Shown piece by piece: positions 31,361-32,968 of a stretch of 40,237 nucleotides of DNA. Position 1 is the first letter of the stretch; the number at the start of each line of letters is the position of its first letter. This DNA comes from Macrostomum lignano (Eukaryota). A program made the position numbers and the translations under genes. The DNA is taken from contig NIVC01004629.1 in NCBI GenBank assembly GCA_002269645.1, forward strand, positions 1-40,237, read 5' to 3'. The notes beneath the pieces were generated by a model. That model worked only from the letters and a program-made list of their open reading frames with translations, did no database searches and was not told the DNA's origin.

Positions 31361-32968
31361 TTAGTTCGCAGACATTATCTGGTTCTCATAAAAAGAACCC
31401 AATATTTCTTCACCGTCCTTATCAGCAATTATATAGGTTGTAGGATTGGTATTTAAAACTTTACTGATAGTAAATTTCTCACTTATCTTCCAATATCCTT
31501 TTCTTCCTTTTTCAAACTTATCTTTCCATTTATAGATATAAACAGAATCACCAACCTTAAAAGATTTCTTTTTATTTTTTTCAAATTTTCCAAAAGTAAC
31601 CCTAACATTTTCAGGATTGTTATAAGCTTGTTGAGGAGTCATCTTTATCGCCGAATGATATGAATTGTTATAATCTTTCACTACGTCTGGTAATATTTTT
31701 ACCCATTTTTGGTTACCATTAAGACTAAACTGAAACCATAATTTCTTACCTAAAGTTCTATTAAATCTTTCTATTAATGCGTTTTTACTCTCTCCATAAA
31801 TAGAATAAATTTTATTAATATACTCCCCATTCGCGTCCTTTTTCCTTTCTTGTCCTTTTTCAAAATGATACAATTTATACATGTGAGGATTGTAAAATTC
31901 TTTTCCTTCGTCAACACACAACCTTTCACTTTTTTCTCCAAGACTTCTAAAAGCAGCAGCAACCTCCTCTCCCTTTTTGGATTTTAAAGGAACAGCCCAC
32001 GCGTATCGAGTAAAACCATCTAATATGGTTAAGATATATTTATATCCTCTTTCGTTCGGCATCGACATTAAATCAGCATACCAAATTTCATTCTTTTTGA
32101 AGTTCATGATTTTTCTATAAAATTTAGGTTTTCGATATTCTTTATGAAGAATCTTTGCCTCATCAGAACTTAACCCGCCGCCACTTAACAACAAACACTC
32201 AACACAATTATTTCCATGTTGATTATAATTAATTCCCAAACCAAATTTAACTTTAGACTGCAAGATCTTTTTAACCATCCACCTAGTTAATTTTTGACCT
32301 ACCGATAATCCCTGCAAGTTATCTAATCCTTGAATCATTTTTTGATCGGCTTCATGTTTTAATCTTAATGCTTCCTCGGGTGTGTTCTTATCAGCATCTC
32401 TGTATGCTAAGTCATGATAGTATGCTAACCAATCAATTCCATTTATGGGAATTGAATCGGCTTTTGGGGTGTCATCAGGATTTAATCTCAAATCTAAGCG
32501 AGTGCCGGGTAGTTTACCCTCAATCTTTCGAAAGAGGCTGGAGCACACCTTAAGCGGCGATAATTACCGCCCATCTCCGTCTGCTCTCTGAACCTTCTCC
32601 TTATATTTAAAATACTTAGGAGCTTGGCTGCGCATTGCCACCGTGTCTTCAAGCTTTTTACCATCGAACCATAGGTTCGCGGACGAAGTCCGATTGGGAA
32701 GAGGAGTTACCTCTGTTCCTTCAAAAGATTTCTCAATTGAAGTGGTACTTGAAGCTGTATGACGGGTTTCACGCAATTTGGAGATGTCGCCACAAATAGT
32801 GACTAGCAAGGACATTGCCTTCCTCACTCAGGCCACGGGTTAACCTGTGAAGTTCATTGATGGTAGGTGTAGCTCACCCGTATACCTCCCAGTAGTAAAT
32901 ATTGGTGGTAAGCTTGTTAATCCTTTTTGAACATCTAAAAATCCTCCTTCAAATACTATTTGGTTCAT
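31361..32968 (-). CDS. PLA2 (parvovirus VP1-like, PLA2X)-retroviral-type integrase fusion, 424 aa after splicing; exon 1 32968-32843, exon 2 32509-31361
   Basis: Spliced: MNQIVFEGGFLDVQKG...GELHLPSMNFTG|PGTRLDLRL...PINGIDWLAYYHDLAY...ADQKM (PLA2), then WYADL...CVDEGKEF...IERFNRTL (DDE) and a Polinton-type C-terminus. Both exons are in the same frame; the ATG has the shared TAAAAATG context. Confidence 0.9.
32510..32842 (-). ncRNA. Group I self-splicing intron, IC1-like, 333 nt, no homing endonuclease ORF
   Basis: P1 CAGGU/GCCUG with U.G at the 5' splice site; P2.1; P3 CAUCUCC/GGAGAUG; P element AAAUUGCGUGAAA; Q element AAUGCGCAGCCAAG; P5abc with A-rich bulge; P6a CUCCU/AGGAG; R element GUUCAGAGAGCAGA and S element AAGGUGUGCUCC giving P7 GAGCA/UGCUC; P8; P9; P9.0 AG/CU. 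Removal restores the PLA2 loop FTG-PG. Confidence 0.93.
32663..32694. repeat. Double-hairpin element copy 1, inside the intron P5 extension
   Basis: AT-CGAACC ata GGTTCG-CGGAC gaa GTCCG-AT. Confidence 0.8.

Follow-up and report, generated by a model that had tools for sequence, protein, structure and literature searches.

Nuclear group I introns are stated, in the part of PMC3679873 available to us, to occur only in ribosomal RNA (rRNA) genes of microorganisms, and the animal group I introns that surfaced in our literature search were mitochondrial. Polinton-like viruses of protists offer a further setting, as the accessible portion of PMC12220804 reports introns of 309-376 nt that match the Rfam group I model RF00028 in a few protist groups. 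In phages, the pairing of a free-standing nuclease with an intron that lacks an open reading frame (ORF) has been proposed, in the available sections of PMC11296320 and PMC11620839, as a step that precedes the intron-encoded nuclease. Here we describe a group I intron in a 40,237-nt contig of Macrostomum lignano (NIVC01004629.1, assembly GCA_002269645.1, positions 1 to 40,237; hereafter the window), where it interrupts a PLA2-like/rve-integrase gene. The element that carries this gene is a Polinton (adintovirus-like) provirus in an animal genome. We consider it fairly probable that the mobile, IC1-like intron and an adjacent restriction-type nuclease form a two-part selfish module in animal Polintons.

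The intron occupies the minus strand from 32842 (first base) to 32510 (last base); it is 333 nt long and has no internal ORF. A covariance-model search had been proposed in a preliminary description of this DNA, and an E-value scan indeed matches the intron to RF00028 over the complete model with 61.1 bits (gathering threshold 50; E = 1.1e-14). A scan of the whole window at the gathering threshold with fast filters had returned no match, and recovery by the E-value scan identifies this as a filter miss. The fold has a z-score of -3.27, with none of 100 shuffled sequences equally stable, and the intron is GC-richer than the surrounding AT-rich element.

Intron-less alleles in the same genome fix both borders and confirm the limits 32510..32842 that had been proposed earlier. 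Three such alleles (L391-L393) belong to the window's own family, and 17 of the 20 loci fetched by junction pattern are intron-less and continuous at the insertion codon, the other three having given no protein match. An uninterrupted homologue, P0008, agrees with the borders and passes the cut-offs of both PF08398 and PF00665. In the window, exon 1 (32843..32968, minus strand) contributes 42 codons of the PLA2-like/integrase gene. Exon 2 (31361..32509, minus strand) has 382 codons that hold the remaining PLA2-like domain and then the rve integrase; its matches to PF08398 (E = 0.011) and PF00665 (E = 1.6e-7) both fall below the cut-offs. The insertion point lies between a Gly codon and a Pro codon of the PLA2-like domain, and the natural intron-less alleles indicate that removing the intron restores the host reading frame.

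The earlier proposal that all core helices from P1 to P9 can be drawn holds up well. All 19 hand-drawn helix segments (P1, P2, P2.1, P3, P4, P5, P5a in two parts, P5b, P5c, two extra hairpins, P6, P6a, P6b, P7, P8, P9 and P9.0) pair completely when G-U pairs are counted, and the P3-P9 core includes the P3/P7 pseudoknot and a G-C pair at the guanosine-binding (G) site. P1 (32829..32847, minus strand) forms seven of seven pairs, places a U.G pair at the 5' splice site (U32843 with G32833) and is present in the minimum-energy fold too. P2.1 spans 32789..32803 (minus strand). The P5abc extension (32647..32754, minus strand) contains an A-rich bulge at 32658-32654, a GAAA loop at 32732-32729 and the two extra hairpins; some variants of the intron, 303 nt long, lack a 30-nt part of it. 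P7 and P8 (32540..32588, minus strand) include a variant G site with G instead of A at the 306-equivalent position. Finally, P9.0 puts the 3' splice site immediately after the last intron base, A32510, while P10 is weak by eye (four of five pairs). Neither P9.1 nor P9.2 was found in the intron, in which only about 30 nt separate P7 from the 3' end.

The intron had been assigned to type IC1. That assignment stands for P2, P2.1 and the P5abc extension with its A-rich bulge and GAAA loop, features known from the Tetrahymena intron. Because P9.1 and P9.2 are absent and P10 is weak, we label the intron IC1-like rather than plain IC1. It is a variant member of group I that has the model match, the P1 U.G pair, the core and the restored frame, and that lacks the terminal G.

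Searching the assembly with exact core motifs recovered at least 162 intron copies, some of them probably assembly duplicates, and none in controls. The window's type (type A) accounts for 112 copies, type B for 27 and a third type for 23, and the three have different ribozyme cores that occupy the same codon. Type B introns are 836-895 nt long, have a conventional P7 and end in G in 27 of 27 scored copies; their nuclease ORF runs from the P2.1 loop into the core. Types A and B are identical at 38 of 45 positions in P1-P2, 103 of 111 in P5abc and 29 of 33 at the 3' end, with lower identity in the core (68 of 94). The third type (L089:1085-1411 on the minus strand, L090-L092, L101, L102, L394-L396, L408, L409 and L425) has a different core, presumably IE-like, and has P2.1 and P5abc in common with the other types. 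The bases beyond its apparent 3' end do not yield the usual exon-2 frame, and over 80 nt its 3' part matches a giant-virus capsid intron (L113) at 81% identity. We also noted a family B copy (L035:1400-2500) in which unrelated DNA takes over after exon 1 and the first 60 intron nt; beyond it lies another copy of the gene, this one without an intron. As a pattern, the site shows turnover of parts: three cores, a nuclease that is either intron-encoded or free-standing and, in most type A copies, an HNH-like gene in its place.

The P7 sequence GAGCA/UGCUC with its retained G-C pair is as the preliminary description gave it, and it is exact in 78 of the 81 type A copies examined (of 112). The change had been taken to imply selection for function. 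The variant is real, but it is not peculiar to this copy: the same P7 occurs in 25 environmental cores, which lie in giant-virus RNA-polymerase and capsid genes and mostly end in G. P7 pairs in each of 167 distinct cores, drawn from public contigs as well as this genome; extraction required three of the four variable P7 pairs, and all four were paired in each core. Within this set, the 54 cores that carry G at the 306-equivalent position without exception carry G at 266 too, which fits the base triple that we assume for the G site. A tree from which the P7 columns were masked unites types A and B (98) and implies seven changes for the variant. We considered descent from giant-virus introns with the same P7 and rejected it, since that grouping (97/95) appears only with the P7 columns included and is circular. 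Both core trees have few columns and long branches. As far as these sequences tell, the P7 variant is a recurrent state that represents an allowed alternative G site, and is a mark neither of descent nor of recent selection here. Among environmental virus-type capsid genes, a set of introns near the stop codon (L267-L269, L273, L274, L277, L280, L282 and L362) has the same P7 variant; in these introns the U of the 5' splice site seems to be missing and the last base is in some cases C, and their splice sites may be non-standard.

The preliminary description missed two features, the terminal A and the partner nuclease, the second of which would explain the location of the intron. The last base of type A introns is A in 65 of 81 copies and G in 16, two of the latter having been scored by hand with an exon 2 that is one base short. 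Terminal A as a single decay event was ruled out, as these 65 copies extend across divergent haplotypes. One alternative to a functional ribozyme is that introns of the terminal-A lineage splice badly, if they splice at all, and persist only as a spacer that breaks a nuclease site while the integrase is made from an internal Met and PLA2 comes from terminal-G or intron-less copies. A terminal G is the group I norm, seen here in the scored family B copies and the 16 type A copies. Two further points weigh against splicing. A 325-codon frame begins at the first Met of exon 2, its codon 58, from which the integrase could be produced without splicing. Moreover, unspliced contigs bridge both splice sites in one run (X11 record 14) and the 3' site in another (X7 record 27); these runs were guessed to be RNA and may be DNA, so the contigs settle nothing either way.

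We nevertheless regard this alternative as unlikely. The core is near invariant in P7, and terminal A accompanies many exon-1 haplotypes and is shared by copies whose introns are only 83-86% identical. Among 11 intact terminal-A haplotypes, the ratio of nonsynonymous to synonymous polymorphism (pN/pS) is 0.15 in exon 1 and 0.05 in the 57 exon 2 codons before the first Met, although recombination between copies can blur this signal. Splicing would be needed for those 57 conserved codons to be useful. A giant-virus RNA-polymerase intron (L278/L357) combines the same P7 variant with a terminal A, and published introns of this kind do splice: Diderma L2066, with a terminal A, splices in vitro (PMC3679873), and the available part of PMC6545197 describes ligated exons in vivo for coral ND5-717, which is without a terminal G. 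Public sequencing runs that contain this stretch number 19, none recorded as RNA. The joint 32509-32843 is not among the three joints listed in contigs of four runs; contigs drop rare forms, so we do not count this against splicing.

Directly upstream of exon 1, with its 3' end overlapping the exon 1 start, is an intact free-standing gene for a putative Eco47II-like PD-(D/E)XK nuclease (32949..33449, minus strand). The product matches PF09553 with E = 4e-4 and a score of 20.4, below the cut-off of 25.9; one relative (P0164) scores above the cut-off, and 24 of 25 aligned nuclease relatives match the family. Its ESM Atlas match to the Eco47II family is 0.95. The structural model, with a predicted local distance difference test (pLDDT) score of 78, matches PD-(D/E)XK folds at Z 6-7.7, with EcoO109I as the second-best match (Z 6.8, root-mean-square deviation 6.1, 148 aligned). 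Searches with the nuclease returned nothing under E 1 in PDB sequences and nothing at E 0.001 in a viral fold library, and NCBIfam returned no family for it.

Nuclease and intron are closely associated. The same nuclease, about 65% identical to the free-standing form, is encoded within the intron at each of 28 family B loci. An intron is present in every one of the 59 loci that bear the nuclease and contain the gene, and the fetched flanks of the 20 intron-less alleles are all free of the nuclease. In other public assemblies, an Eco47II-like nuclease reads into a group I core in P0003, P0004, P0156 and P0158-P0164. Because these relatives also read into an intron core, nuclease and intron travel together, and they would belong to a wider family of intron-borne restriction nucleases whose proteins are known without DNA context. 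Among viral contigs, 0 of 47 candidates matched for the integrase and 0 of 347 and 0 of 9 for the nuclease, and we found no second animal host with DNA context.

Distant relatives of the nuclease occur at 10 giant-virus loci, and in seven of seven scanned they adjoin a C5 methyltransferase; for one such methyltransferase, the two best plasmid matches adjoin genes annotated as Eco47II-family. An Eco47II homologue is assigned to GGNCC in the available part of PMC10305163. No methyltransferase matched in the element ORFs scanned, and the 12 genomic PF00145 matches lie outside the contigs listed for the intron, a listing that omits 12 of the 112 type A places. The nuclease slot can also hold an HNH-like/zinc-finger gene of 200 codons (for example L433:2740-3339, minus strand), present in 56 of 83 type A loci, six of 12 third-type loci and three of three intron-less family A alleles. 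It is probably a second free-standing homing endonuclease.

The Gly-Pro codon pair at the insertion point always spells GGNCC, and the intron splits it exactly there. A predicted target, with a specificity taken from the nuclease family, would thus span the insertion site and be broken by the intron. Measured against an order-2 Markov expectation, GGNCC is absent from the element in the window (0 observed, 10.4 expected) and from copies C13 (0/17.3), C166 (0/15.0) and the family B copy C67 (0/12.3). Of 16 like words it shows the strongest depletion in nine of nine copies; its six one-mismatch neighbour classes are near expectation, and its W and S forms are both absent. In all three intron-less copies counted, GGNCC is present at the junction (C944 1/1, C25 1/2, C1051 1/4). 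Host DNA has 127 sites in 28.5 kb against 203.7 expected, and eight of nine other pPolB loci are, like host DNA, at 0.45 or more of expectation. At the 10 giant-virus nuclease loci depletion is not significant in nine and strong in one (L478, 36/130.1); we do not count this lack as support, because protection by a methyltransferase would lead one to expect it. In family A copies L431/L432, L433 and L439/L440, CCNGG ranks second in depletion (0.24-0.42 of expectation), and in family B it lies outside the lowest three; a further nuclease may have left this mark.

Our best reading is that the intron and site avoidance replace methylation as self-protection, and that the nuclease drives homing or competition between proviruses. 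The nuclease would cut GGNCC, and intron-bearing copies would be immune, the intron breaking the one site that cannot be recoded. Intron-less copies and other co-resident elements would be cut and then either lost or repaired from the intron allele; such homing would be collaborative where the nuclease is free-standing. Because host DNA is full of GGNCC sites, nuclease expression would probably be confined to the replicative phase. In the transcript, the intron would fold, exogenous G would attack the 5' site at the P1 U.G pair and P9.0 would set the 3' site. The second step, on a terminal A, would probably be less efficient and would restore the PLA2-integrase frame. What the data show are the structure, the borders, the series of copies, the nuclease family, the depletion of the site and the lack of a methyltransferase match in the ORFs scanned; splicing and cutting at GGNCC are inferred. 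More tentatively, and with somewhat less than an even chance in our view, the system may amount to "restriction without modification": a giant-virus Eco47II-type enzyme would have been taken without its methyltransferase, GGNCC purged, and the sole un-recodable site shielded by an active ribozyme that splices animal mRNA on a terminal A with a recurrent alternative G site, the free-standing and intron-encoded stages and three cores being preserved at one codon.

Several observations weigh against this model of intron, site avoidance and nuclease. A 5-bp cutter would be expected to cut host DNA as well, and a homing enzyme normally has a long site. The fold match of the nuclease is middling, with a best Z of 7.7 and none at 8 or above, and family A has only three intron-less alleles, whose lack of nuclease is not significant alone. 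The depletion of GGNCC is weaker against synonymous-codon shuffles, with 0 observed against 2.5-4.2 and 3-30 of 300 shuffles as low; control elements also stand at 0.6-0.85 in such shuffles, Gly-Pro is under-represented in most control elements too, and the ninth of the other pPolB loci, a control with repeat-derived frames (C566), has 7 sites against a Markov expectation of 52.3. The 56 type A copies with the HNH-like gene instead of the nuclease avoid GGNCC all the same, and two copies without nuclease, C110 (1/16.7) and C757 (1/10.9), do so almost equally.

This last observation favors another explanation, in which avoidance is a relic or was imposed by something else, for instance restriction by a helper giant virus; the nuclease site would be longer or no longer relevant, and the intron a passenger of any endonuclease, now mostly the HNH-like gene. 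Giant viruses do carry this restriction-modification pair, and the HNH-like gene is found in 62 of 95 intron-bearing family loci. We judge it improbable all the same. Many copies keep the nuclease gene intact, in two families whose nucleases are about 65% identical; the nuclease is inside the intron throughout family B, and its relatives in other assemblies read into the intron core.

The preliminary description attributed the placement of the intron to horizontal transfer via a virus, and the environmental relatives lend this support: none of 279 related loci touches ribosomal DNA (rDNA), and those inspected lie in giant-virus capsid and RNA-polymerase genes. The host 18S gene (L109:2938, position ~1438, which we take to be rDNA intron site S1199) has the same six bases before the junction and one after it. 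An origin straight from protist or fungal nuclear rDNA, by reverse splicing into this look-alike site with the nuclease joining later, would not exclude the other readings and could draw on IC1 and IE being the two main nuclear rDNA subgroups (available part of PMC3679873), but it is the least likely of the alternatives, given that a 7-base match in 1.8 kb is weak, that no environmental locus matches rDNA and that the intron-plus-nuclease unit is already present in environmental assemblies.

The claim that the intron lies in a protein-coding gene of an animal provirus is borne out by the element and its surroundings as well. Pfam searches found the Polinton/adintovirus hallmarks rve integrase and A32 ATPase, along with pPolB in longer copies; the window contig stops at 40237, before pPolB, which is matched in the longer copy L440 (PF03175, E = 2.4e-18). 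The left end of the provirus (30469..30737) is an imperfect hairpin or internal inverted repeat of ~270 nt, AGTAGT ... ACTACT, and is the same in five copies with five different flanks. A candidate right-end motif matching the AGTAGT left end is present in C13. On the plus strand follow a probable major capsid protein (34183..35658), proposed from size and position with no capsid family match, an A32-like packaging ATPase (35801..36535; PF04665, E = 0.0018), and probable minor capsid, cysteine protease and fibre genes (36572..39799), recognized by eye. The capsid, penton, protease and fibre assignments come from size, order and motifs alone, with no diagnostic Pfam match.

Upstream of the provirus lies a multi-exon, CELSR/Flamingo-like cadherin-EGF host gene (window 5434-26411), and two contigs that bear intron copies (C506 and C952) also contain Wnt genes; the host is an animal on the strength of these genes. 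Between the host gene and the provirus, window 29155-30337 contains broken frames that by eye resemble a DNA-transposon remnant and gave no Pfam match. A 33-nt tandem array occupies host DNA at window 26734-27186, and a 57-nt repeat lies in the fibre-like gene at window 38075-38530.

We found no earlier report of a group I intron in an animal Polinton in the open PubMed Central and bioRxiv literature, a search without subscription journals or supplements; supplementary tables S11-S12 of PMC12220804 could list animal elements. The available parts of 10.1101/2023.08.22.554363, PMC8502044 and PMC12768974 report no such intron. With at least 162 copies in animal chromosomes and in a protein gene, group I splicing of mRNA in an animal cell becomes directly testable. 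The natural series at one site (terminal A or G, nuclease outside or inside, three cores and empty alleles) is a ready-made set for two old questions, namely how strictly group I introns depend on a terminal G and by what route a mobile intron gains its endonuclease. The distribution of GGNCC suggests that the intron is no pure parasite: it would benefit the virus by making it immune to its own weapon.

The introns in the accessible part of PMC12220804 are similar in that they too match RF00028 and interrupt genes of small DNA viruses that integrate into nuclear genomes. Those introns lie in a short gene upstream of the capsid gene and have no partner nuclease identified in that part, whereas here the host is an animal, the gene encodes a PLA2-like/integrase protein and a partner nuclease is present. 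The element resembles the animal adintoviruses and Polintons in the available sections of PMC8502044 in having pPolB, rve integrase, a packaging ATPase and a PLA2-like gene, and differs in having its PLA2-like domain joined to the integrase and interrupted by a ribozyme, no such intron being reported in those sections. The intron itself shares P2/P2.1, P5abc with its A-rich bulge and GAAA loop, the P7 G-C pair and a precedent for terminal A with the Tetrahymena-type rDNA IC1 introns (available part of PMC3679873). Unlike them, it interrupts a protein gene and has neither P9.1/P9.2 nor a His-Cys endonuclease.

Giant viruses supply parallels to both parts. Their self-splicing introns also lie in conserved viral protein genes, with interference competition proposed (Bodo saltans virus, PMC5871332, and chlorovirus IB, PMC7019647, in the parts available), and giant-virus contigs have the same core motifs and the same P7 variant as here. 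The intron endonucleases described in those parts are HNH or GIY-YIG enzymes, in contrast to the Eco47II-like enzyme of a virus integrated in animal chromosomes. Chlorovirus and giant-virus restriction-modification systems likewise place a type II-like nuclease of viral origin in a eukaryotic cell, where it is thought to degrade host DNA; in the available part of PMC7019647 the nuclease always adjoins a methyltransferase, unlike here, where we found none. There is also a likeness to collaborative homing and intron-nuclease interference in phages (PMC11296320 and PMC11620839, in the sections available), in which a nuclease stands beside an ORF-less intron whose insertion blocks the target. Those phage systems use enzymes with long sites, whereas the short palindromic site considered here is apparently purged across the whole element. 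Finally, both stages of the proposed path, the free-standing and the intron-encoded nuclease, co-exist in this genome.

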